Origin: an uncultured Acidobacteriota bacterium
Lineage (GTDB): Bacteria > Acidobacteriota > Terriglobia > Terriglobales > Acidobacteriaceae
Direction: 5' to 3'
Length of the DNA: 64,000 bases
Assembly: GCA_963765755.1 (NCBI GenBank)
Contig: CAVXXV010000004.1
Span: forward strand, 259,036 to 323,035
Shown here: positions 23,663-37,834 of the stretch, in pieces
Numbering within the stretch: position 1 is the first letter of the stretch
Layout: every line of letters begins with the position of its first letter
Position numbers and translations under genes: made by a program
The notes under the pieces: generated by a model
Databases searched by the model: none
The model's input: only the letters and a program-made list of their open reading frames with translations
What the model was told of the DNA's origin: nothing

Positions 23663-24904
23663 ATGGCACCAGAAAATCAGCTTTCCGATCATCGCGAGCC
23701 AGAGTTAGATTTACTCCTGCCTAAAGGCACGCTCGATGTGCCGCTATGGAAATCACTGTTCGCGAGCATTGATGCTGCGCTGTTCCCCAAAAAACTTCCG
23801 CCTCTGGTACTGACCTCGAGGCCCGAGGCGCAAGGCGAGCTTTGGGGCGAGCGTCTCACGCGACCATGGTGGCAGTCGGTGTTCAGCAACCTGCGGGACG
23901 TGGTGTTCCCGCCGAAGTTGCCGCCGCTGCAGCTGACTTCAACCCCGGTCGAAGGCGAGAATGCGCTGGACGACGATCTCGCGCTCCCGTGGTACCGGTC
24001 GCTGTTCTCGAACCTGAAAGACGCATTCTTCCCGGAGAAACTGCCGCCGCTTGTGTTGACCTCCAAGCCCGCTGCGGTACGTGATATCTGGGGGTTCTAC
24101 AATTACAAGAAAAATGGCGCGCTGGCCTCCACCGGCGTGCACGTTGTGCTGATCGCATTGCTGATTGGCGGAACGATGTATGCAAACCGGGCTGTGACCG
24201 TGGTGAAAAAACAAGGTCCGGTCATGCCGCTGCTGTCGGACGCAGACATTCCGCCCCTGCCGCCTTCCAAGACTCAAGTCGGTGGCGGCGGCGGTGGTGG
24301 CGATCGCGACAAACTGGCCGCCACGAAGGGCAGACTGCCCAAGTTGGCGATGGAGCAGATCACGCCGCCCATGGTGGTGGTGCGCAACGAGAATCCCAAA
24401 CTGCCAGTTGAGCCTACCGTCGTCGTTCCTCCACAGATCAAGCTCGCGATGAACAACATGCCGAATCTCGGCGATCCTATGGCTGCGATTCCGAACGGTC
24501 CGCTTTCGAATGGCACGGGATCGGGCGGAGGCATCGGCTCTGGTTCCGGAGGCGGCGTGGGCTCGGGTGAAGGGCCGGGCGTCGGTCCGGGGCGTGGTGG
24601 TGGCATCGGCGGCGGCGTTTTCCACGTGGGTGGAGGCGTTTCTGCTCCCAAGCCCGTGTTCTCCCCGGATCCTGAGTATTCGGAAGAAGCGCGCAAGGCG
24701 AAGTATCAGGGAACGGTTGTTCTCGGGCTCGTCGTAGGACCTGATGGCCGTCCGCGGGACATGAAGGTTCTGCGCAGCCTGGGACTTGGTCTGGATGAAA
24801 AAGCTATCGAGGCTGTGAAGAACTGGCGCTTCGATCCGGCCGTGAAAGATAACAAGCCGGTGGCCGTGTATATCAGCGTGGAAGTGGATTTCCGGTTGTA
24901 CTAA
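23663..24904 (+). CDS. TonB-family energy transducer with an extended repeat-containing cytoplasmic N-terminus
   Basis: One TM segment (VHVVLIALLIGGTMYA), a Pro/Gly-rich spacer, and a C-terminal TonB domain (EEARKAKYQGTVVLGLVVGPDGRP...AIEAVKNWRFDPA). Confidence 0.8.
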   Translation: MAPENQLSDHREPELDLLLPKGTLDVPLWKSLFASIDAALFPKKLPPLVLTSRPEAQGELWGERLTRPWWQSVFSNLRDVVFPPKLPPLQLTSTPVEGENALDDDLALPWYRSLFSNLKDAFFPEKLPPLVLTSKPAAVRDIWGFYNYKKNGALASTGVHVVLIALLIGGTMYANRAVTVVKKQGPVMPLLSDADIPPLPPSKTQVGGGGGGGDRDKLAATKGRLPKLAMEQITPPMVVVRNENPKLPVEPTVVVPPQIKLAMNNMPNLGDPMAAIPNGPLSNGTGSGGGIGSGSGGGVGSGEGPGVGPGRGGGIGGGVFHVGGGVSAPKPVFSPDPEYSEEARKAKYQGTVVLGLVVGPDGRPRDMKVLRSLGLGLDEKAIEAVKNWRFDPAVKDNKPVAVYISVEVDFRLY

Positions 24905-25993: not shown

Positions 25994-26716
25994 ATGCGCA
26001 TTCTCGTGCTCAGCATCGCGGTTGCATTAGGCTGCTCTACGCATGCCGCCGCTCAGTTTGACGAGATACTGAAGAAAGCTGGAGACACACTCGCGCACGG
26101 CAACACCGCCGGCCTGAGCGACGACAAGATCATCGCGGGCCTCAAGCAGGCTCTGCAGGTGAGCACAGGGAAAGCGGTGGCGCTCACCGGCAGGCCCGAC
26201 GGCTTCCTGAAGAATCAAGCCATCAAGATCCTGCTGCCACCCAAACTCGAGACTCTTGGCCGAGGCATGCGTATGCTGGGCATGGGAGCGAGAGTCGACG
26301 AACTTGAAGTCGGAATGAACCGTGCGGCCGAGCAAGCCACTCCGCAAGCCAAGCAGATTTTTCTCTCCGCGCTTCGCAAGATGACTTTCGACGACGCCCG
26401 CCAGGTGCTCACCGGAGGCGACACCGCAGCCACCGATTACTTCAAGCGCAGCAGTTCCGGCGATCTCACGACCACCTTCTCACCCATCGTCCATCGCTCC
26501 ATGGAGCGCGTGGGCGTCGTTCAGCAGTACAACCAGGTGCTCGCCAATGCGCCCGGCGGCAACGCTCTCGCCGGGCAATTCGACATCGACAAATATGTAG
26601 TCGGCAAAACGCTGGACGGCCTCTTTCTCATGTTGGGAGAAGAAGAAAAGAAAATCCGCAAGGATCCTGCCGCCCAGACCACAGCGTTATTGAAGGAAGT
26701 TTTCGGCAGAAAGTAG
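25994..26716 (+). CDS. DUF4197-family secreted protein
   Basis: Signal peptide, then [22 protein letters not shown] and [25 protein letters not shown], matching my recollection of the DUF4197 pattern. Confidence 0.75.
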
Positions 26717-26778: not shown

Positions 26779-28017
26779 CTACCGCCCGGTCTTGACGCTG
26801 GCCTGCTCCGAGAGATCGGCTGCCTCTTCTCCCAGGACTTTCCCTCCGCAGCAAGGCCCCGGCGGGATGGGCGCGCCGTGCGGGCAGGTCTTCGGGTGTC
26901 CAAGGAACGAACAAATCTTGTCAGTCGCGCCGGGCGAGAGGATGTGCTCGAACTTGCAGGCTTGTTCTTCGATCTCGGTTTCGCTGTCCATGGCGAGACT
27001 GTCGGTGAAGAGGCGTTCCGCCAGTCTGTGCCGGCGAATGATGCTGCCGGCCTTGTCGCGTCCGCGCGGCGTCAGGGTGACCAGGGCGCTGCCATCGGGA
27101 ACGAAAATTCCCTGCGGACGCATGGCATCGTGACATGGGTTGATGAAAGGCTTGTGCCGGTGAGATTCCGGTGGATGGGGACTGGTAATCACGAGTCCAA
27201 GCTCGGACATCTTTTCCACGGCGATGCTGACGGGCAGGGCACCGTGCATTTCCATGCGTCCCAACTCGGCCCGTTCACCGTGTTCTTCCATGACCCATAG
27301 TTCCTCGAGGATTTCGTCGAACTGCTCCTCGTCGGCCAGAGCAAAGACTTCCTGCGCGGCGATCTTGCCGTGGTGTAACTCGATACGACGGTCGGCGAGT
27401 CTTGCCACGACGGGATCATGCGTAACCATCACAATGGTGCGTCCCTGCTGGTGAAACTCGCGCAGCAGGCGCAGCACAATTTCCTCGTTCTGCGCGTCGA
27501 GATTACCGGTCGGCTCATCGGCCAGGATGATTTTGGGATCGTTAATCAGCGCGCGCGCAATGCAGACGCGCTGCTGCTCGCCACCCGACAGTTGCGAGGG
27601 CACGTGATGGCAGCGGTCTTTCAATCCTACGCGCTCCAGCGCGTCGAGCGCCTCCTTCTCATCGGTCATGCTGTGGAAGTATTGCGCGAGCATGACGTTC
27701 TCGACTGCCGTCAGATAAGGGATGAGGTGAAACTGCTGAAAGACGAAACCAATCTTTTCGGCGCGCACGCGATTCAACTCAGCGGCGGAGATGTCGGCGA
27801 CGTCCTGTCCGTCGAGCCAGATTTCGCCGCTGCTCGGACGATCGAGGCAGCCGATCAGGTTCACCAGCGTCGACTTGCCGGAGCCCGAAGGGCCCATAAT
27901 CGAGACCCATTCACCCGGGTCAACGGTCAGCGAGAAGTCATCCAGCGCCCGGATGGTGCCGCCGTTTTCCTCGGCCTTGGCGGGATAGAGGCGGCTGATT
28001 TTCTTAAGCTTGATCAC
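26779..28017 (-). CDS. ABC transporter ATP-binding protein (MacB/LolD-like) fused to a C-terminal DtxR/IdeR-like metal-sensor module
   Basis: [25 protein letters not shown] and VTHD in the first ~225 aa. The remainder has [16 protein letters not shown] and CPHGAPIP, as in the DtxR family. Confidence 0.85.
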
Positions 28018-28019
28018 CT

Positions 28020-29174
28020 TTACTCTCCTTTCAAGATGATAGCGGGTTGAACACGCCGGAGCATCGACATTGGGACGATGGCCGAGAGCAGCGCCACTGC
28101 GATGCTTCCGACGAGCACCACAGGAAACACACTGAAGCGCGGAACGACCGGGGCATTGAAGTTGACGCGGCCGATCCAGGCCGCGATGCCGATGCCGACC
28201 AGGAATCCCACGACTGCGCCCACCGCGCCGAGCGCCGCGGCTTCGGCGGCGAAAAATCCGCTGACCAGTCCTTCCGATGCCCCCAGCGCTTTCATGATGG
28301 CGAAGTCTTTACGGCGATCGAAGACCCAGCCTGTCAACGTGGCGAGCACGCAAAGAGCGGCGGTCAATACGATCAGAACTGCGGCTGCGTAGAGGGTCGC
28401 GCGCGTTTTCCCGAGAACGCGGGCTTCGCCTTCCACAATCTGGCGGACGGGTCGCACATCGGCAACCGGAAGCGCACCGGCAAGACGGCTGACGACACCG
28501 TTGATCTCCTCGGCAGATCCGGTAGCGGCGATTTCGATGGTCGAGGGATGAATCCCGCTCCATCCGGAGAACTCGGCCATGGGAAGGTAAACCCGGCTGT
28601 CTTCGGCAGCCCCGGTTTGCAGCGTGCCTGCGGTCTTCAGGTTAATGGTTCGGCCCAGAAAGCTGAGATCGAACGCCTTGCCATCTGGCGAAACCACGGA
28701 GAGGGCTCGCATTCCCACGAGTGCTTCGCCCGAAGCAGAAGGCCAGGCGCTCACCGACCACCAACGATTGAGCTTCTGGATGCGTTCAAAATCCGTGCCG
28801 ACCACGACGACAGATTGGCCATTCGAAGTACGCGCCACCAGGTACGCGAAGGGAACAGCCATCCCGCGGCCGGCCAGGACTGTTTCCGCTTTACTGATTG
28901 CGTCCGGGGGCAGGGAAGTGCCGTCTTTCCCGACCACTACTACGTTCGCGCCGTAACTGCGAAATTCCTTGCGAAGCTTGGCTTGCACGTCGACGTAAAG
29001 ATTCATCATGGCGGTGGCCACTGCGGCTGCAACCACCATCGCCAACAAGGCCGACGCGGCACGCCCGCGGCGCAGTACGGCGGCGCGCAGCAACATGCGC
29101 AGAAACATGGATGTGTGGGGCGAGGCGGCGCGACGCTCGGCTACGCTTGGGATAACTTGCGTTGTGCTGTTCAT
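28020..29174 (-). CDS. ABC transporter permease, FtsX/MacB type
   Basis: An N-terminal TM, a large periplasmic domain and a C-terminal FtsX-like 3-TM bundle (DFAIMKALGAS). Confidence 0.8.
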   Translation of the reverse strand: MNSTTQVIPSVAERRAASPHTSMFLRMLLRAAVLRRGRAASALLAMVVAAAVATAMMNLYVDVQAKLRKEFRSYGANVVVVGKDGTSLPPDAISKAETVLAGRGMAVPFAYLVARTSNGQSVVVVGTDFERIQKLNRWWSVSAWPSASGEALVGMRALSVVSPDGKAFDLSFLGRTINLKTAGTLQTGAAEDSRVYLPMAEFSGWSGIHPSTIEIAATGSAEEINGVVSRLAGALPVADVRPVRQIVEGEARVLGKTRATLYAAAVLIVLTAALCVLATLTGWVFDRRKDFAIMKALGASEGLVSGFFAAEAAALGAVGAVVGFLVGIGIAAWIGRVNFNAPVVPRFSVFPVVLVGSIAVALLSAIVPMSMLRRVQPAIILKGE

Positions 29175-30436
29175 GCGTCGCCTCGCAGGGCAAACACAGG
29201 ATCAAACTTCACGGCGCGCCGGATGGCTGCCGCGCTCCCCGCAAAAGTCACAATCACGGCGATCGCCATAATCACCGGAAACAACACGGGCTGGATCGTA
29301 ATCTGCGCATCAAAGATCGAATACCCGATCCGGTGCGCCAGCCAGGAGCCGGTGAAAAAGCCAATCACCCCGCCGAGAAGCGCGAGCAACGTGCTCTCCG
29401 CGAAGAACAGGGCTGCGACCGCAACATTGCCTGCGCCCAAAGCCTTCATCAATCCAACTTCGCGGCGGCGCTCGAAGATGGCTGTGGCCATCGCCGCCGA
29501 GACTGCCAGGGCGGACGCGAACAGGGCAGCCAGGGTGATGAGCAGCATCAGGCCCTTGATGCGCGACAGCACCGTACCTTCGTTCTGCGCCACCTGCCGA
29601 ATCTGCTCCGCATGAGAATGCGGAATGGCTTCCTGCAACTGGTAGGCAATCGACTGCACGTAGGGCGAGCAGTACCAGCGATCCCACAGTTCGCCGCTCA
29701 TGGTCTTGGGGTCGCGCCGTGCCAAAGCATCTTCGGGCTTGGTCAGCGCGCTCACGTAGACGCGGCGCACCGCGTCGGGCTTGCCGAGAAGCAGTTGCGC
29801 CACCGGAAGGGGCGCGACAATCTGGTCATCTTCGGTTCCCCCGGTTGAGAGAATTCCTGCAACGCGATGATTCTGCCCGCCGATGGTGAGGGTGTCGCCG
29901 CTGTGAAGTTCCAGCTTCCGTGCGAGATGCTCGCCCAGCAGCACATCGCTGGATTGTTCCCCCGGCCAGGAGCCGTCAACCTTCCACCAGGGATGGGTGT
30001 TCTTAACACCAGTGGTGAACTGTTCCTTGCCGAAAGCGAGAGGCTTCGCGAAGTAGGTCCCCAGCAGCGTTACGTCCTGCGTGCGTCCCGAACTACCGAG
30101 CGAAACATTCACCGGCAACATGGGCGAGAAGCCCAGAATGTTATGGCGCCAGAAGGTGCCCTTGATCTTGGGCAGGTCGGCTTCGCTGAGAAAGTTGCCA
30201 TCGCTCGGCGGCTTGAGGTTGACGCCCCCGATCTCAACATCGATGGTGTCTTCCTGCGGTGTGACCAGCAGGTTGGCGCCGTAACTGCGCAGCTCGCGAT
30301 TAATCTTGTCGCCAATATCGGTGGCCACGGCGATCATCGCGGTCGCGACTGCGACGCCCAGGGTGATGGCAATTCCGGCCAGCAGCTTGCGGCGCTTCTG
30401 CCGACGAAAACTTTCGTAGAGGAGCCGTGCGAACAT
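29171..30436 (-). CDS. ABC transporter permease, FtsX/MacB type (paralogue)
   Basis: Same architecture (EVGLMKALGAG). 4-nt overlap with the downstream permease. Confidence 0.8.
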   Translation of the reverse strand: MFARLLYESFRRQKRRKLLAGIAITLGVAVATAMIAVATDIGDKINRELRSYGANLLVTPQEDTIDVEIGGVNLKPPSDGNFLSEADLPKIKGTFWRHNILGFSPMLPVNVSLGSSGRTQDVTLLGTYFAKPLAFGKEQFTTGVKNTHPWWKVDGSWPGEQSSDVLLGEHLARKLELHSGDTLTIGGQNHRVAGILSTGGTEDDQIVAPLPVAQLLLGKPDAVRRVYVSALTKPEDALARRDPKTMSGELWDRWYCSPYVQSIAYQLQEAIPHSHAEQIRQVAQNEGTVLSRIKGLMLLITLAALFASALAVSAAMATAIFERRREVGLMKALGAGNVAVAALFFAESTLLALLGGVIGFFTGSWLAHRIGYSIFDAQITIQPVLFPVIMAIAVIVTFAGSAAAIRRAVKFDPVFALRGDA

Positions 30437-30439
30437 GGG

Positions 30440-31687
30440 CTATTTCTGGAAGAACCTGGTCTGGGCAGCTACGTCCGCTTCCTTGAGGATGACAGCGTCG
30501 GCGGTAGTTTCGGCCTTCAAGGGGATCGGGTTGCAGCCACCCGGCATGCCTACCGATTGCGGATTGATGGGGGCCGCGCAGTTTTTGCAGACTACGCCGG
30601 TCGTGCCCTTGTAGAAGCCAACCGATCCGCAAATCTCGCAGGCATCCAGAACCGTGGCAATTTTGCCATCCGGCTTCTGATAAAGCCAGAAGCGCACTTC
30701 TACTCCGTTCTCAGATGCCCGGTAGAAATGGATGTCGCCATCCGAGACCTGGTTGAGCGGAATCGACGCCTCTCCATTCTGGAATGCGATCTCGGCAGCT
30801 TTTTGCGGCTGACTCAGGCTCTTGGCATAGATAAATTCCGCCGTGACCAGCATGATGAACAGGAAAGAGCTGACGTAGACCGATCCCATCCATAGACGCT
30901 CGCGGCGGGCCGTCCAAAGCGCCTTGCGTCGCTCGGCAGGCGTGACCGCTTCAGGCGCTGGCTGGCGCGACTTCACCTCGAACAGGACCATCAGGGCGGC
31001 CAGCGCGAAAATCGTGATGAAGAAAAAGACGTCGTTGCGGACGATCGGCCCGATCATGGCCATTTCCTGTTTGGAGGAAGGCAACACGCCGTTCTCCGAC
31101 AATTCGTGCAGGCCGCTGATGATGAGCTGAGCGGCGACGAACCACAGAATGACCGTGGTCACGCGGAAGAACTTCTGCAGGTTGATGCGCACGCTGCCCT
31201 TCACAAACATCACGCCAAAAGCCACGGCGGAGAGCACGCCCAACAGGGTACCGATAAAGGTCATCAGTTCCGTCGAATTCAAAGTCACGCCGGCCAGCGT
31301 CAACACTGTCTCGACCCCTTCCCGCAATATCATGAGGAAGATGAACAGGAAGACCCCGACGCGCGAGCTTTCGCTGGCCAGCGACTGGAGTTTGCTCTCG
31401 ATTTCACCCTTCATCTTTTTGCCGGTACGCATCATGAAGATGATCATGGTGATAACGAAGAAGGCTGCGGCCAGCATGACCCAGCCCTCGACGATGTCCT
31501 GGTTGAGGCTGAGCCGCGATACGAGGACGGCGACCCCGATGCTTCCGACGAAAGCGGCTCCCATGCCGGCATAGACTGACCGGCGCAGGTCGGTCCGCCC
31601 GATCTTGGCCAGATAGGCGAGGGTAATACCCACAATCAGGGCGGCTTCGACGCCCTCGCGCAAGGTAACTATGAAGGCCTGCAGCAT
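30440..31687 (-). CDS. FTR1-family iron permease fused to a DUF2318-type Cys-rich domain
   Basis: The ATG at 31687 gives MLQAFIVTLREGVEAAL. A second REGVET motif is present, then multiple TM segments, and a C-terminal CEICG...CKNC...GGCNPIP. Confidence 0.8.
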   Translation of the reverse strand: MLQAFIVTLREGVEAALIVGITLAYLAKIGRTDLRRSVYAGMGAAFVGSIGVAVLVSRLSLNQDIVEGWVMLAAAFFVITMIIFMMRTGKKMKGEIESKLQSLASESSRVGVFLFIFLMILREGVETVLTLAGVTLNSTELMTFIGTLLGVLSAVAFGVMFVKGSVRINLQKFFRVTTVILWFVAAQLIISGLHELSENGVLPSSKQEMAMIGPIVRNDVFFFITIFALAALMVLFEVKSRQPAPEAVTPAERRKALWTARRERLWMGSVYVSSFLFIMLVTAEFIYAKSLSQPQKAAEIAFQNGEASIPLNQVSDGDIHFYRASENGVEVRFWLYQKPDGKIATVLDACEICGSVGFYKGTTGVVCKNCAAPINPQSVGMPGGCNPIPLKAETTADAVILKEADVAAQTRFFQK

Positions 31688-31709
31688 AGGAAAGTGCCCG
31701 ATACCATTT

Positions 31710-31724
31710 TGAAAATGAATTTCA
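31710..31724. promoter_or_regulatory. Candidate Fur-box-like 7-1-7 inverted repeat upstream of the iron permease operon
   Basis: TGAAAAT-G-AATTTCA, compared with TGATAAT-n-ATTATCA, lies 23-37 nt upstream of the ATG inside an AT-rich patch. Confidence 0.3.
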
Positions 31725-31829
31725 ATTTCAACTTTATTAGGATAGCGTGGGCTGCGCCGGGGCGTCAACGCATGAGATCACGCGCCGGTGTGATCTGTAT
31801 CACGCCAAAGGGCTTGCCCCTTCGGGCCT

Positions 31830-33598: not shown

Positions 33599-34914
33599 TT
33601 CTTCGGCTCGATCGTGATCAAGCGGTGCCGAGCCTGCCACTCCTGATCAGGATACTTCCCATTCGCCACTTGCAGGAAAAGATGATAATTAGCCGCAGCC
33701 TGATGAAAGTCGCGAAGATGATCATAAGCTGTGGCGCGCATGAAATATCCCACGGGAAGTTCCGGCAAAAACTTGGCGCGCATGTCCAGGGCCTGGATCG
33801 CGACCGGATAATCTTTGGCCTCATTGGCCGCGATGGCTAGATCGCCATAGGCGGCGCCCCAATCGGGCTTCAGCTTCACGGCACTCATAAATTCCTGCTC
33901 CGCCGCGGGGAACTTCTTCTGCTTCATCAGGGCCTGCCCCAGCTTGTGATGGAGTTCAGGATTCGCCGCGTTTGTCGAAAGCAACGAGCGGTACATGGCC
34001 TCGGCTTCCGCGAACTTGCCGGCCTCCAATAAGACGTCTGCCAGATCGCCTTGCGCCCCGACGTCGCCGGGCGCAATCCTCAGACCAGCCTGCAGCTCCG
34101 CCGCTGCTTCGTCATATTTCTGATCAGCAGCCAGAACACGACCGAGTTGAACATGAGGAGCAGCCTCGTTCGGGCGCTGGCTCACCACCTTGCGCAAGTA
34201 CTCTTCAGCTTCCGGAAAGCGCTGGCCTCGCATGTAGATATTGGCCAGGCCCACGAGCGCATCCTGCGACGAAGGATCGAGCACGAGGGCCTGTTTGTAC
34301 TGTTCTTCGGCATCGGCGAACTTGTTCGCCTTCTCCAACAACAATCCCGCCGAAAGACGGGGCTCGGGGTCTTTGGGCTGAAGGGCAGCGGCTTGGCGGA
34401 AGGCTTCCACGGCAGCGTCCGGATCTTGCTCCTCGAGCAAGTGCCCAAGCCCCAGCCATGCCCGAGCGTGCCCCTCGTCCACGTGGCTTTGTGGCTTAAG
34501 CTTGGTTGCGGCTTTTAGAAAGTCCTCAGCTCCGGGCTTCTTATTCTTGGCCAGAGTAAGTCCAAGGTTCAAGTTTGACTCGAACACGTCAGGCTTGGCG
34601 CTGACGGACTGGCGATAGGCCTCGATGGACTCCTCGTTCCTGCCCAGCGCGTTATAGACGAAGCCGAGATCAAACCAGGCTTGATAATTCGCAGGCTGTG
34701 CGCCCACGACTTTTTTAAGGAGCGACTCGGCGGCGGCAAAGTTCTTCTTCTCGATGGCTGTCTCGGCCTGTGCGAGCTCCGGTGGCTGGGATTGATCGGG
34801 TTCGGCCACGCGATGGTGGCGCACCGTCTTGCTGCTGGAGGTTTGCGCGGAAAGGGACGCAGCGATAAGCAGGACTACGCTCAGGATGCACCGCAATGGT
34901 CTATTTGTGGCCAT
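33595..34914 (-). CDS. Secreted tetratricopeptide-repeat (TPR) protein
   Basis: Signal peptide MATNRPLRCILSVVLLIAASLSAQ and more than 8 TPR-like 34-aa units. Its start overlaps the uvrA 3' end. Confidence 0.75.
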   Translation of the reverse strand: MATNRPLRCILSVVLLIAASLSAQTSSSKTVRHHRVAEPDQSQPPELAQAETAIEKKNFAAAESLLKKVVGAQPANYQAWFDLGFVYNALGRNEESIEAYRQSVSAKPDVFESNLNLGLTLAKNKKPGAEDFLKAATKLKPQSHVDEGHARAWLGLGHLLEEQDPDAAVEAFRQAAALQPKDPEPRLSAGLLLEKANKFADAEEQYKQALVLDPSSQDALVGLANIYMRGQRFPEAEEYLRKVVSQRPNEAAPHVQLGRVLAADQKYDEAAAELQAGLRIAPGDVGAQGDLADVLLEAGKFAEAEAMYRSLLSTNAANPELHHKLGQALMKQKKFPAAEQEFMSAVKLKPDWGAAYGDLAIAANEAKDYPVAIQALDMRAKFLPELPVGYFMRATAYDHLRDFHQAAANYHLFLQVANGKYPDQEWQARHRLITIEPKK

Positions 34915-37834
34915 TGGAACCGAAAGTTCCATATCCATTGAGCACAGCAGCGAGATATTTTCCCGTGTATGAATTGGGAAGCTTGGCAATCGTCTCTGGT
35001 GTCCCGGTCCCCACCACGTAGCCACCCCGTTCCCCGCCTTCGGGGCCGAGATCAATCACCCAATCGGCCGTCTTGATGACCTCGAGGTTGTGCTCAATGA
35101 CGACGATGGAGCCCCCTGCGTCAATTAGACGGCGGAAAGCCGAAAGAAGTTTGCTGACGTCGTCGAAATGCAATCCCGTGGTCGGCTCATCGAAGATGTA
35201 GAGGATCCTTCGCTTTCTTTGCAGGCCGCTCCCACCCGCCGATGGACGCCCGATTTCACGGGCTGCCGGCTGCAGGTGGGCCGCCAGCTTCATACGCTGC
35301 GCTTCGCCTCCAGAGAGGGTGGTAGCCGATTGCCCGAGGCGCAAGTACCCGAGGCCGACCTCCTCCAAGACCCTGAGCTTTTCCGTAATCTTCGGGACTT
35401 CGGCGAAAAACTTCAGCGACTCCTTCACCGTCAGATTCAAGACTTCATGGATGTTCTTGCCTCGATAGCGAACATCCAGAACCTGCGCCTTGTAACGCGT
35501 CCCCTTACACTCCTCGCACACCAGTTCCACGTCCGCAAGAAACTGCATTTCGACCGTAACCGTGCCGTCGCCCTGGCAGGTTTCGCAGCGGCCTCCCGGA
35601 ATGTTGAATGAGAAGTGTCCCGCGCTGAACCCGCGCTTTTGCGCCTCGGGAAGGGAGGCAAACAAATCGCGGATGGCGTCGAACGCCTTGATGTAGGTAA
35701 CCGGGTTCGAACGTGGAGTGCGCCCGATCGGAGACTGATCGACGAGCACCACCTCATCAAGATAGTCCTCGCCTTCAATGCTGTCCCACTGCGCCGCGAG
35801 CGGCTGCGTGCCATTGGTCCGCTTTTTCGCGCTGCACACCGCATGGTAGAGCACGTCATGCAGGAGACTCGACTTGCCTGAGCCGGAGACCCCGGTGATC
35901 GCGACAATCATCCCCAGCGGAATATTCAGGTCGATGCCCTTCAGGTTATGGGCCCGTGCTCCACGAATCTTGATCTGTTGCGGCCCGGGCTTGCGTCGGT
36001 TGGCTGGGAGCTGGATCCGCAATTCTTCCGCGAGGTACCGGCCGGTGAGGGAAGCAGGATTCTTCTTTATCTCGGCATAAGTCCCGGTCGCGATCACTTT
36101 CCCACCGTTTTCGCCCGCCCCCGGCCCCAGGTCGAGAATCCGGTCCGACGACTTCATGATGTCGGGATCATGCTCGACCACCAGGATCGTATTTCCCAGA
36201 TCCCGCAGATTGTGCAGGATCTTGATCAGCCGGTGAGTATCACGAGAATGCAGGCCAATGGAGGGCTCGTCAAGAACGTAGAGTGTCCCGACCAACCGCG
36301 AGCCAAGCGACGTCGCTAGCTGAATGCGTTGCGCTTCTCCTCCCGAAAGCGTCGAGGCCAGCCGATCGAGCGTCAGATACTCCAGCCCCACATCGTTCAG
36401 GAAGCGAAGCCGCTCGCCAATCTCCACCAGCAACTTGTCTGCGATGGCCGCTTCCTGCGGACGCAGGTCAAGCGACTGGAAGAAGTCCGCGGCCTGCTCG
36501 ACGGTCATGCTGCAAACCTGGCAGATATTGCGCCCGTTAATCTTGACCTGTTGCGCCTCCGGCCGCAGACGCGCACCGCCGCACGTGGTGCACACGGAAT
36601 ACCCGCGGTAGCGGCTCAGGAACACCCGCACGTGCAGCTTGTATTTCTTGCGCTCCAGGTGGGCGAAGAAGCCGCGCACTCCCGGGAATTTTCCTTCGCC
36701 GTCCACGACCAGCTTCTGATGTTCCGGATCGAGGTCCGACCAGGGCACATCGAGCGGGAGCTTTGCTTGTTTTGCGAAGCGACGCAGTTCCGTGAAGAGT
36801 GGCCGATACTTGGGCTTGGTCCACGGCTCGATCGCGCCGTCGTTCAGTGACTTCGACTTGTCGGGAATCACCAGGTCGAGATCGAAATCGATCGTATTTC
36901 CGAAGCCCTGGCAGCGTGGGCAGGCTCCGTACGGGTTATTGAATGAAAACAGGATTGGCTCGGGTTCTTCATAGCGTATGTGATCCTGTTTGCACTCGAA
37001 ACGCTGGCTGAACCGCAATCGCTGGGGAGCTTCGCCTTCGCGTGGCGCCGTCTCAAAGATCACTTCGCCGGATTCGCGATAAGAAGTTTCAATGGCATCC
37101 ACAATGCGTGCGCGGGCATCGGCCGCGACCACCAGGCGGTCGGTTAGCACAAATACAGGCGCGGCGAAGTTGATGTCGAGCAACGACTCTGGAGTTGAGA
37201 ATTCATAGATCTGCCCGTCCTGGTATAGGCGATTGAAGCCCCGCGTGCGCAGATCGAGCAGACGAGTCTTCAACAGATCGCTGGGAAGCCGGGAGAGCTC
37301 GGCGCTCGCTTTCTTGCGTCGCGTTGTTTTCTTCTCAGCCTCGAGCGGGCGGGCGCTCTCCGGCTGAACAGGGAAGAACACCTGCAGACGCGTTTCCTCT
37401 TCCATGGCGAGAATTGCGTCCGCAACCTCATCCACCGCATCCTTCTTCACTTCCTGGCCACACTTCAGGCAGTAGGTGCGCCCGACTCGAGCAAACAAAA
37501 GTCGCAGGTAGTCGTAAATTTCGGTGGCAGTGGCGACCGTCGAGCGTGGATTGCGTGTGGAATTCTTCTGCCGGATGGCAACCGCTGGCGCGATGCCGTC
37601 GATCTGGTCCGCTTCCGGCTTCTCTATGCGCTCCAAAAATTGCCGCGCATAGGCGGAAAGCGATTCGACATAGCGTCTTTGGCCCTCGGCGTAAATCGTG
37701 TCGAACGCAAGAGACGATTTCCCGGACCCGGATACACCAGTAACTACGGTCAGCGTATTATGGCCGATCGTGAAGTCGATATTTTTCAGGTTGTGGACGC
37801 GTGCGCCGCGGACAACGATGGAGTCTGTGGACAT
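34901..37834 (-). CDS. uvrA: Excinuclease ABC subunit A
   Basis: 977 aa, two ABC ATPase modules (GVSGSGKSSLAFDT, GVSGSGKSSLLHD) and zinc-finger CxxC pairs. Confidence 0.97.
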   Translation of the reverse strand: MSTDSIVVRGARVHNLKNIDFTIGHNTLTVVTGVSGSGKSSLAFDTIYAEGQRRYVESLSAYARQFLERIEKPEADQIDGIAPAVAIRQKNSTRNPRSTVATATEIYDYLRLLFARVGRTYCLKCGQEVKKDAVDEVADAILAMEEETRLQVFFPVQPESARPLEAEKKTTRRKKASAELSRLPSDLLKTRLLDLRTRGFNRLYQDGQIYEFSTPESLLDINFAAPVFVLTDRLVVAADARARIVDAIETSYRESGEVIFETAPREGEAPQRLRFSQRFECKQDHIRYEEPEPILFSFNNPYGACPRCQGFGNTIDFDLDLVIPDKSKSLNDGAIEPWTKPKYRPLFTELRRFAKQAKLPLDVPWSDLDPEHQKLVVDGEGKFPGVRGFFAHLERKKYKLHVRVFLSRYRGYSVCTTCGGARLRPEAQQVKINGRNICQVCSMTVEQAADFFQSLDLRPQEAAIADKLLVEIGERLRFLNDVGLEYLTLDRLASTLSGGEAQRIQLATSLGSRLVGTLYVLDEPSIGLHSRDTHRLIKILHNLRDLGNTILVVEHDPDIMKSSDRILDLGPGAGENGGKVIATGTYAEIKKNPASLTGRYLAEELRIQLPANRRKPGPQQIKIRGARAHNLKGIDLNIPLGMIVAITGVSGSGKSSLLHDVLYHAVCSAKKRTNGTQPLAAQWDSIEGEDYLDEVVLVDQSPIGRTPRSNPVTYIKAFDAIRDLFASLPEAQKRGFSAGHFSFNIPGGRCETCQGDGTVTVEMQFLADVELVCEECKGTRYKAQVLDVRYRGKNIHEVLNLTVKESLKFFAEVPKITEKLRVLEEVGLGYLRLGQSATTLSGGEAQRMKLAAHLQPAAREIGRPSAGGSGLQRKRRILYIFDEPTTGLHFDDVSKLLSAFRRLIDAGGSIVVIEHNLEVIKTADWVIDLGPEGGERGGYVVGTGTPETIAKLPNSYTGKYLAAVLNGYGTFGSNGHK

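Follow-up and report, generated by a model that had tools for sequence, protein, structure and literature searches.

Among the closest described systems to the locus reported here are the FetMP-FetABCDEF systems of Campylobacter jejuni and Escherichia coli F11. C. jejuni needs fetB, fetC and fetD when iron is limiting, but what the ATP-binding cassette (ABC) module does is described as unclear (PMC10783030). Elsewhere among ABC transporters, MetNI and ModBC carry C-terminal ligand-binding domains on their ATPases, and these domains gate hydrolysis (PMC10710835). In the DtxR family of metalloregulators, MtsR binds metal at a primary regulatory site 1 composed of H76, E80, C123 and H125, together with E160 of the FeoA domain (PMC6698748). 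Here we analyze a gene in which such elements come together, located in a 64,000-nucleotide stretch of DNA (the window) from an uncultured Acidobacteriota bacterium of the family Acidobacteriaceae (GenBank assembly GCA_963765755.1, contig CAVXXV010000004.1, forward-strand positions 259,036 to 323,035). The gene (26779..28017 of the window, minus strand) encodes an ABC ATPase fused to a DtxR/IdeR-type fold. Based on sequence comparisons, the arrangement is widespread and strongly conserved.

The fusion gene begins with GTG and encodes 412 amino acids in a single open reading frame (ORF), with a type VII ABC ATPase at residues 1-222 and a two-domain DtxR/IdeR fold at residues 228-390. An earlier reading of this DNA, made from its letters without database searches (the original prediction), had assigned the N-terminal ~225 residues to a MacB/LolD-type ATPase, and our analyses agree. 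The nucleotide-binding domain (NBD; 27352..28017, minus strand), which is of the type VII, FetD-like kind based on Pfam and Foldseek, matches ABC_tran over residues 25-170 (Pfam, E=1e-37) and has a complete set of ATPase motifs: Walker A (GPSGSGKS, 42-49), signature (LSGGEQQ, 143-149), Walker B (ILADEP, 164-169) and H-loop (VTHD, 198-201). The catalytic motifs are invariant in 139 family sequences. Foldseek comparisons of the NBD model with the E. coli MacB NBD (5lj9), MJ0796, LolD, FtsE and HrtA gave template-modeling (TM) scores of 0.85-0.91, the best (0.91) being to 5lj9. NCBIfam models also place the NBD nearest to MacB, LolD and FtsE, yet its scores lie under every equivalog cut-off (score/cut-off: LolD, 212.3/307.75; FtsE, 206.5/264.85; MacB, 232/966). 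A pair of these ATPases should, judging from sequence and fold, drive a heteromeric ABC module of the FtsX/MacB type (type VII, mechanotransmission).

The C-terminal part, described in the original prediction as DtxR-like, has a clear profile match to the family: Fe_dep_repr_C (PF02742) covers residues 316-385 with E=1.8e-25 and 89-91 bits against a cut-off of 27 (Pfam). Residues ~290-390 align with residues ~39-136 of IdeR/DtxR (phmmer against PDB, E=1e-14; BLASTP against DtxR, 5e-18). AlphaFold, supplied with 30 diverse relatives, gave a model of residues 223-412 (predicted local distance difference test [pLDDT], 84.9; predicted TM score [pTM], 0.75) that superimposes on the two-domain crystal structures of IdeR and DtxR over ~158 columns, with target-normalized TM scores of 0.74-0.80 and a root-mean-square deviation of ~3.1 Å. 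The model indicates that the module holds both a winged-helix domain and a dimerization/metal domain. Domain 1, the winged helix (residues 228-316; 27070..27336, minus strand; AlphaFold and structural match), contains helix H1 at residues 228-245, H3 at 263-272 and wing strands at 276-280 and 311-315; only ~5 residues link the last strand of the NBD to H1. Domain 2, for dimerization and metal binding (residues 317-390; 26848..27069, minus strand; PF02742), has helices at 317-340, 346-359 and 362-371. The claim of a ‘complete’ DtxR/IdeR module therefore stands for domains 1 and 2 of the model and fails for the SH3/FeoA-like third domain, which is absent from the fusion when its fold is compared with IdeR and DtxR. 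The protein ends in a poorly conserved tail (residues 391-412 plus the stop codon; 26779..26847, minus strand), with a mean column identity of 0.35 among 73 Terriglobia sequences and pLDDT values <50.

Residues equivalent to the DtxR metal ligands were identified in the window protein, and their conservation was counted in an alignment of 139 diverse fusion members. All five ligands named in the original prediction are present: H330 corresponds to H79 of DtxR, E334 to E83, C354 to C102, E357 to E105 and H358 to H106. The prediction was also right that the H98 equivalent is not a histidine; the position is Glu350 in the window protein and D, E or H across the family, and Glu350 could still serve as a ligand in place of His. 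Primary-site residues are retained in nearly all members (C354 in 131/139; E357 and H358 each in 136/139). Position 235, aligned with M10 of DtxR, is H in 74 sequences, E in 47, N in 13 and D in 3, and is thus H/E/N/D in 137/139; this equivalence is alignment-dependent (hand alignment and MAFFT) and less certain than the others. E334 is invariant. In DtxR the residues H79, E83 and H98 belong to an ancillary site that draws two more ligands from domain 3, which the fusion lacks.

Beyond the sites named in the original prediction, there is a second, more strongly conserved one, of the MtsR/SloR type (E334/C378/H380), accompanied by the invariant residues C369, H374, C389 and C390; C378 and H380 are likewise invariant in the 139 members. 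The sequence C378-P-H380-G matches C123-P-H125-G of SloR residue for residue, and the same motif occurs in ScaR and in Sulfolobus SSO2273. H76, E80, C123 and H125 of MtsR correspond to H330, E334, C378 and H380 of the fusion. The C389-C390 pair lies nine residues past H380 and, because the FeoA domain is absent, is the obvious candidate, on sequence grounds, for a substitute for the ligand that this domain would supply. Dimer-interface hydrophobics (L332, L336, F371, L372) are ≥90% conserved. The fusion therefore retains two sensing sites described in the DtxR family, the IdeR primary site and the MtsR-type site, and strong purifying selection acts on the dimerization helices and on both of these sites.

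The winged helix presents a different picture. The ‘wHTH-like stretch’ of the original prediction is real at the level of the fold (AlphaFold, TM 0.74-0.80), while PF01325, the N-terminal DNA-binding domain of DtxR, has no match in the window fusion protein even at E≤10. In 29 of 30 diverse members PF01325 is unmatched at E≤1, as are other helix-turn-helix (HTH) families; the controls scored 95 bits for PF02742 and 72 bits for PF01325 (DtxR), and 108 and 79 bits (IdeR). Column entropy across the family peaks at 2.68 bits in the H2-H3 region and falls to its minimum, 0.77-1.04 bits, in domain 2. The metal-binding and dimerization function has been retained, and the ancestral DNA-reading surface has not persisted in recognizable form. 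An argument against DNA binding from net charge was considered and dropped, because the charges of DtxR and IdeR are similar to that of the fusion, although residues 223-276 of the window protein carry -12.

Members of the long Terriglobia form, and only these, have a His/Cys-rich insertion of ~29 residues at the wing tip (residues ~280-308; 27094..27180, minus strand), which is missing in 120 of the 139 family members. Model confidence is low over residues 285-308 (AlphaFold), and the NPCHD and PHPP motifs of the insertion are conserved in the 73 Terriglobia sequences; it may be an extra metal-binding loop. BLASTP and HMMER alignments placed the recognition helix inside this insertion. We rejected that placement in favor of H3 at 263-272 with an insertion in the wing, because the AlphaFold model and the short-form relatives support H3 there. 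One 50%-identity representative (P0124) has a Cys-rich insertion of its own, GPSHPLNCPLVNTGDCCTN, at residues ~226-250, placed after the NBD and ahead of the module's helix 1, and the fusion clade to which it belongs has Arg at the H79-equivalent position.

The original prediction had left room for an artefact at the junction of the two parts, and the junction proved to be genuine. A scan of GTDB species (one genome per species) with the motif [LM][GDS]HPx[TAR]CPHG found a relative in at least 587 genomes, of which the best 80 were inspected; the rest may include unfused relatives. The fusion is an uninterrupted single ORF in 73 of the 80 species loci, and the other 7 are explained by contig ends or long-read frameshifts. 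The 80 loci are from Terriglobia-type metagenome-assembled genomes (MAGs), with closed chromosomes among them. In protein collections (NCBI, ENA, JGI, Logan), the 120 best of the listed 90%-identity clusters, 88-97% identical, all contain PF00005 plus PF02742. The same is true of a further 120 listed clusters of a shorter form (346-386 aa), for which the search was seeded with the most distant fusion and which are labelled Acidoferrales, Bryobacteraceae, Planctomycetes and Latescibacteria by their sources. Six more diverged full-length fusion clusters (351-401 aa) were recovered by an exhaustive search of 50%-identity representatives. The exact window protein is present on a 390-kb contig.

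Co-occurrence with FTR1 and DUF2318, raised in the original prediction, holds as well: the order FTR1-FtrD / FtsX / FtsX / fusion is kept in the 80 loci wherever the contig permits, and the same four-gene cassette was found on all three of the distant, shorter-form contigs examined (Planctomycetes, Latescibacteria and Bryobacteraceae MAGs). The cassette is therefore represented in Acidobacteriota, Planctomycetota and Latescibacterota, and the genomes bearing it that we found are MAGs throughout. Given its abundance among the Acidobacteriota of soils and its occurrence in two or more further phyla, the cassette is probably a major iron-acquisition route in soils.

Public databases carry the protein only under generic names (ABC ATP-binding or ‘ATP-binding cassette domain-containing protein’). 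A C-terminal fragment on a short contig (P0399, in the cluster of P0118) carries the automatic label ‘Mn-dependent DtxR family transcriptional regulator’, and pieces from the N-terminal part of the fusion are labelled EcfA2 or a glutathione-transport ATPase. Mislabelled fragments of this kind could cause DtxR regulators to be overcounted in soil metagenomes. Among close homologues of the NBD that have long C-terminal extensions, no Pfam sensor domain was found in those extensions; the same survey returned one adh_short chimera and several duplicated-NBD or MacB-fused proteins. Sensor fusion is not a general theme among close NBD homologues.

As claimed in the original prediction, the fusion gene is the last in an FTR1 iron-permease operon, based on coordinates and Pfam matches. 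The operon is translationally coupled and has four genes (FTR1-FtrD-like, FtsX, FtsX, fusion). Its first gene (30440..31687, minus strand; Pfam) encodes an FTR1 iron permease of the EfeU/FetM type (FTR1, E=9.4e-40) with a C-terminal FtrD-like/DUF2318 Cys-rich domain (FtrD-like, E=7.8e-28). The permease part has two REGVE motifs (REXXE type), and the FtrD-like part contains CEIC-x13-CKNC-x14-C, which is the DUF2318 pattern, described as CxxC-x13-CxxC-x14/15-C (PMC6083913). The true start of this gene is almost certainly the ATG at 31687 (MLQAF...) rather than the TTG at 31768 of the ORF list, because the Pfam FTR1 match begins there and the TTG overlaps a -35 element. Two FtsX/MacB-type permeases (FetB/C-like) follow: permease A (29171..30436, minus strand; Pfam FtsX, 8.4e-17), with a periplasmic MacB_PCD domain (3.1e-15), and permease B (28020..29174, minus strand; Pfam FtsX, 1.3e-16), in which MacB_PCD is slightly below the cut-off (9.2e-06). 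The end of the FTR1 gene and the start of permease A are 3 nt apart, the end of permease A overlaps the start of permease B by 4 nt, and the stop codon of permease B is 2 nt ahead of the GTG of the fusion gene. Genes for P19/FetP and for the thioredoxins FetE/F are not in the operon or its flanks, and the same is true at loci L081-L084, the search having been confined to the loci.

Upstream of the operon, a consensus scan identified a sigma-70-like promoter (31739..31768, minus strand), with TTGACG at -35 (31768-31763), an 18-nt spacer and TATCCT at -10 (31744-31739). It is followed by a 23-bp near-palindromic operator, TTGAAATTGAAATTCATTTTCAA (31709..31731, minus strand), an 11-1-11 palindrome that is self-complementary at 20 of 23 positions and lies 44 nt upstream of the probable FTR1 start. 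There is one copy in the window, with 0 expected by chance. Among 72 related loci, 50 share the identical operator and 61 have it with no more than two mismatches, whereas the sequence on either side varies. A TTGACN-N17/18-TATCCT promoter that stops 5-7 nt before the operator was present in 58 of 61 related loci, so that the operator covers the predicted transcription start. An Rfam scan of the whole window found no RNA family at the gathering score; the conserved leader element is thus not a known riboswitch.

The palindrome has the form TTGAAA(A/T)TGAA-N-TTCA(T/A)TTTCAA. We scanned metagenomes for sequences that keep the palindrome arms, excluding the canonical FTR1-operon version on both strands, and obtained at least 120 loci (L085-L204; GC 30-75%). 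In 51 of these 120 listed loci, the palindrome sits upstream of a FUR-family gene (PF01475, E=1e-28) at a median distance of 33 nt, the pattern typical of an autoregulated fur. A penicillin-amidase-family gene is adjacent in 21, and in 20 of these (Terriglobia-like contigs) it is divergent from a fur gene; it could be siderophore- or acyl-homoserine-lactone-related. FTR1(-FtrD) operons are found beside the palindrome in 17 of the 120, a TonB-dependent receptor in 3, and cytochrome-c-fused FTR1 genes, at high GC, in 9. On the high-GC contigs (0.70-0.75; L095, L104, L118, L139, L145, L155, L177, L189, L199, L203) the genes that follow the palindrome start with a cytochrome c domain, and an FTR1 homologue is found in the contigs; a box of this type thus appears to control a second kind of FTR1 architecture as well. 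At the Planctomycetes locus a fur gene sits immediately upstream of the cassette, and fetMP-fetABCDEF of C. jejuni is also preceded by a Fur site (PMC10783030).

Because the palindrome fronts autoregulated fur genes and iron genes with no fusion nearby, the operator is a Fur-family box. The fused winged HTH (wHTH) would then not be needed for iron-responsive transcription of the operon. Ten Terriglobia loci have lost or replaced the operator, and the H3 sequence is identical in all ten. A replacement palindrome, TTGCAAC-N3-GTTGCAA, was seen upstream of FTR1 in a minority of the cassettes (L009, L014, L068, L010 and L005), sometimes with a third GTTGCAA ~10 nt on; in a Bryobacteraceae MAG (L083, 4350-4375) it abuts the start codon. 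No stand-alone Fur or DtxR gene was found in the 64-kb window or in the flanks of the 80 related loci, which indicates that the regulator is encoded elsewhere, the Planctomycetes locus excepted. Reading of the operator by the fused wHTH, once a candidate for the principal interpretation, was rejected as such after the metagenome scan.

With moderate confidence, we propose that Fur controls transcription of the operon and that the ATPase is gated by the DtxR-fold dimer attached to it, acting as a sensor of cytosolic metal. A predicted Fur-family repressor would bind the 23-bp box over the transcription start and set the level of operon transcription. The fused modules would dimerize through domain 2 beneath the NBD dimer, as DtxR-family proteins do. 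Cytosolic Fe2+ or another divalent metal would bind the IdeR-type site, formed by E/H235 of H1 with C354, E357 and H358, and also the MtsR-type site, formed by E334, C378 and H380 with C389/C390 standing in for the FeoA ligand. Metal binding would fix the angle between domains 1 and 2; the same hinge repositions the DNA-reading heads in the repressors. Since H1 is tethered almost directly to the NBD, movement at the hinge could shift the separation or register of the NBDs and thereby gate ATP hydrolysis. High iron would inhibit, a sign that we assume only from physiology and homeostatic logic. The outcome would be a fast post-translational feedback on top of slower control by Fur, with two sensor families acting at two tiers.

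The original prediction offered two mechanisms, metal gating of the ATPase or a repressor tethered to the transporter. The comparative evidence favors the former and disfavors the latter, because the operator is Fur-type, H3 is unchanged where the operator is replaced and the HTH gives no Pfam signal. Several observations nevertheless weigh against gating. The arrangement of the domains is uncertain in the full-length AlphaFold model (pTM, 0.57; mean pLDDT, 80.2). H330, the H79 equivalent, is His in 81/139 members and Arg in 53/139. Type VII ABC systems are not importers, so that substrate trans-inhibition in the manner of MetN and ModC does not apply literally; iron presumably enters through the separate FTR1 permease, and the phrase ‘motor of a metal importer’ in the original prediction does not fit. 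The Cys-rich site might bind zinc in a structural role. Finally, H3 is near-invariant within Terriglobia, for which a purely mechanical adaptor role offers no obvious explanation, and the net charge of the HTH is similar to that of real DtxR and IdeR.

These last two features, along with the complete winged-helix fold predicted by AlphaFold and the ultra-conserved palindrome ahead of the operon, are what would be expected if the fused wHTH still bound DNA, with a transporter-bound, metal-loaded dimer repressing its own operon or other genes and gaining access to them through co-transcriptional membrane insertion. Against such a tethered repressor, the same Fur-family box stands before fur in 51/120 listed loci and before iron genes that have no fusion, the ten loci with another operator or none keep an identical H3, and 29/30 members lack any PF01325 or other HTH signal where DtxR and IdeR score 72-79 bits. 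Moreover, conservation across clades is lowest in the HTH, the 29-residue insertion sits in the long form's wing, and Q43 of DtxR, which we take to be a base-contacting residue, aligns to Ile265 of the fusion (MAFFT). We regard a tethered repressor as very unlikely. A scaffold, in which the module only holds the ATPase subunits together or docks a partner and the Cys/His residues bind structural zinc without sensing, would account for four invariant Cys and two His within ~22 residues, which resemble a structural Zn site, and for the conserved hydrophobics at the dimer interface; MalK-type regulatory domains are constitutive dimers. However, IdeR-type ligands are not needed for structural zinc and are still kept in 131-137 of 139 members, E334/C378/H380 corresponds to the regulatory sensing site of MtsR, and the unfused FetD works in C. 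jejuni without such a domain, so dimerization needs none. A purely structural role is unlikely on this balance.

The cysteines also admit a redox reading, in which C369, C378, C389 and C390, with H374/H380, ligate an iron-sulfur (Fe-S) cluster or form redox disulfides. The invariance of this Cys4(+His2) set exceeds what DtxR relatives need, and the FtrD/DUF2318 partner and the thioredoxins of the C. jejuni system point to redox chemistry in the pathway. Yet the counterparts of C378 and H380 in MtsR and SloR set a direct precedent for mononuclear metal binding, the spacing was not recognized as that of a known Fe-S motif and no Pfam Fe-S domain matched. We find an Fe-S or thiol-redox sensor rather improbable, and give equally little credence to the more specific proposal that the invariant Cys4His2 set (C369, H374, C378, H380, C389, C390) binds an Fe-S cluster or redox-active metal center and gates the type VII motor by Fe-S or redox status. 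If that proposal were true, the signal would cross the membrane to the periplasmic DUF2318/FTR1 machinery, a new form of inside-out signalling by a transcription-factor fold. Metal might instead activate the motor, by promoting dimerization of the module and hence ATP hydrolysis, or the module might be an acceptor that takes iron from FTR1. Metal promotes dimerization and activation of DtxR. Zn-bound C-terminal domains activate CDF transporters (PMC10710835), and the sign of regulation is unreadable from sequence. This alternative is nonetheless unlikely as well, given that uptake activated by its own product amounts to positive feedback, which is unfavorable for a toxic metal, and that the operon lies under a Fur-type box, i.e., is expressed at low iron. 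An assembly or annotation artefact that joins an ATPase gene to a downstream DtxR-family regulator gene can practically be dismissed: C-terminal fragments annotated as DtxR-family regulators on short contigs offer it no real support, and the ORF is uninterrupted in 73/80 species genomes, closed chromosomes included, and represented by >240 protein clusters from four sources.

Were metal gating to hold, a membrane motor would owe its allosteric control to a metalloregulator fold that is otherwise known only from repressors that bind DNA. The set of regulatory domains exemplified by MetN, ModC and MalK would gain an iron-sensing member, and this would be the first cytosolic sensor that we could find on a type VII (MacB/FtsEX-like) ABC system. 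The finding bears on the FetBCD-type ABC module, which pathogens need for FTR1/P19-dependent iron uptake and whose job is described as unclear (PMC10783030). A module wired to a sensor in this way would imply that motor activity must match cytosolic metal status, and ligand-site mutants combined with metal titrations would provide a built-in handle on motor function.

The operon is flanked by an SprT-like gene on one side and by DUF4197 and murI on the other. The DUF4197 gene (25994-26716, plus strand; E=1.2e-72) sits convergently between the operon and murI. No DUF4197 homologue occupies that position in any of the 80 related loci (0/80), most of which run directly from the fusion gene to murI, and it looks like a lineage-specific insertion. 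Elsewhere in the window, a TonB_C-domain protein (23663-24904, plus strand) has three N-terminal tandem repeats of ~45 aa, with the pattern P[LW]W/Y.S[LV]F[AS][SN][IL].[DA]..FP.KLPPL.LTS.P, followed by a Gly-rich low-complexity linker. A UvrA-like protein of 977 aa (34901-37834, minus strand) matches the Pfam models of the UvrA DNA-binding and interaction domains only weakly or in part, and may be a divergent UvrA paralogue.

The original prediction knew of no experimental description of this architecture. Our literature searches likewise found no description of an ATPase-DtxR fusion, and a 2023 review of the post-translational regulation of transporters does not mention DtxR (PMC10710835). 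The individual parts can nevertheless be compared with known systems. Like DtxR and IdeR, the module has the two-domain fold, a PF02742 score near that of DtxR, conserved equivalents of C102, E105 and H106, a ligand-capable residue at the M10 position and, in the window protein, equivalents of H79 and E83. Unlike them, it is fused rather than free-standing, lacks the SH3/FeoA domain 3, has an HTH with no PF01325 match and has Glu in place of H98. It also differs in its extra invariant Cys/His residues, in the wing insertion of the long form and in the Fur-type operator upstream. Because it has no recognizable DNA-binding domain and is not free-standing, the module is not classed as a DtxR-family repressor, despite the fold and the PF02742 match. 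The C-P-H-G motif after the dimerization domain is shared with MtsR, SloR and ScaR; in MtsR the fifth ligand, E160, comes from the FeoA domain, whereas this domain is absent in the fusion, in which the invariant CC at 389-390 could supply a replacement.

With the C2 domain of MetN, and with ModC and MalK, the module shares its position directly C-terminal to the NBD, its expected presence in two copies per transporter and its predicted ability to dimerize, and as in MetN and ModC the ligand sensed would be chemically related to the substrate taken up. It differs from MetN and ModC in having a metalloregulator fold rather than an ACT-like or TOBE domain, and in belonging to a type VII system rather than a type I importer, so that the metal sensed would not be a substrate moved by the ABC module itself; the trans-inhibition invoked in the original prediction is, for the fusion, an analogy only. 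The NBD structure and the FtsX/MacB_PCD partners are those of type VII systems (MacB, LolCDE, FtsEX, HrtBA, YbbAP). The top-scoring solved NBDs among these (MacB, LolD, FtsE, HrtA and YbbA; 217-232 residues) differ from the fusion in carrying no cytosolic sensor domain.

With FetMP-FetABCDEF (P19-cFtr1, cj1658-1665), the locus has in common an FTR1-family permease, a DUF2318/FtrD-like Cys motif, two FtsX-type permeases with one ABC ATPase (FetBCD) and a Fur-type box upstream. Here, in contrast, a single polypeptide combines FTR1 with DUF2318, P19/FetP and FetE/F are missing from the operon, and the ATPase carries a DtxR-fold module, while FetD is described only as an ATPase bearing ATP-binding and hydrolysis motifs, with mention of no further domain (PMC10783030). 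From its gene content, the cassette is a condensed relative of FetMP-FetABCDEF, with FetM joined to the DUF2318 portion of FetA.

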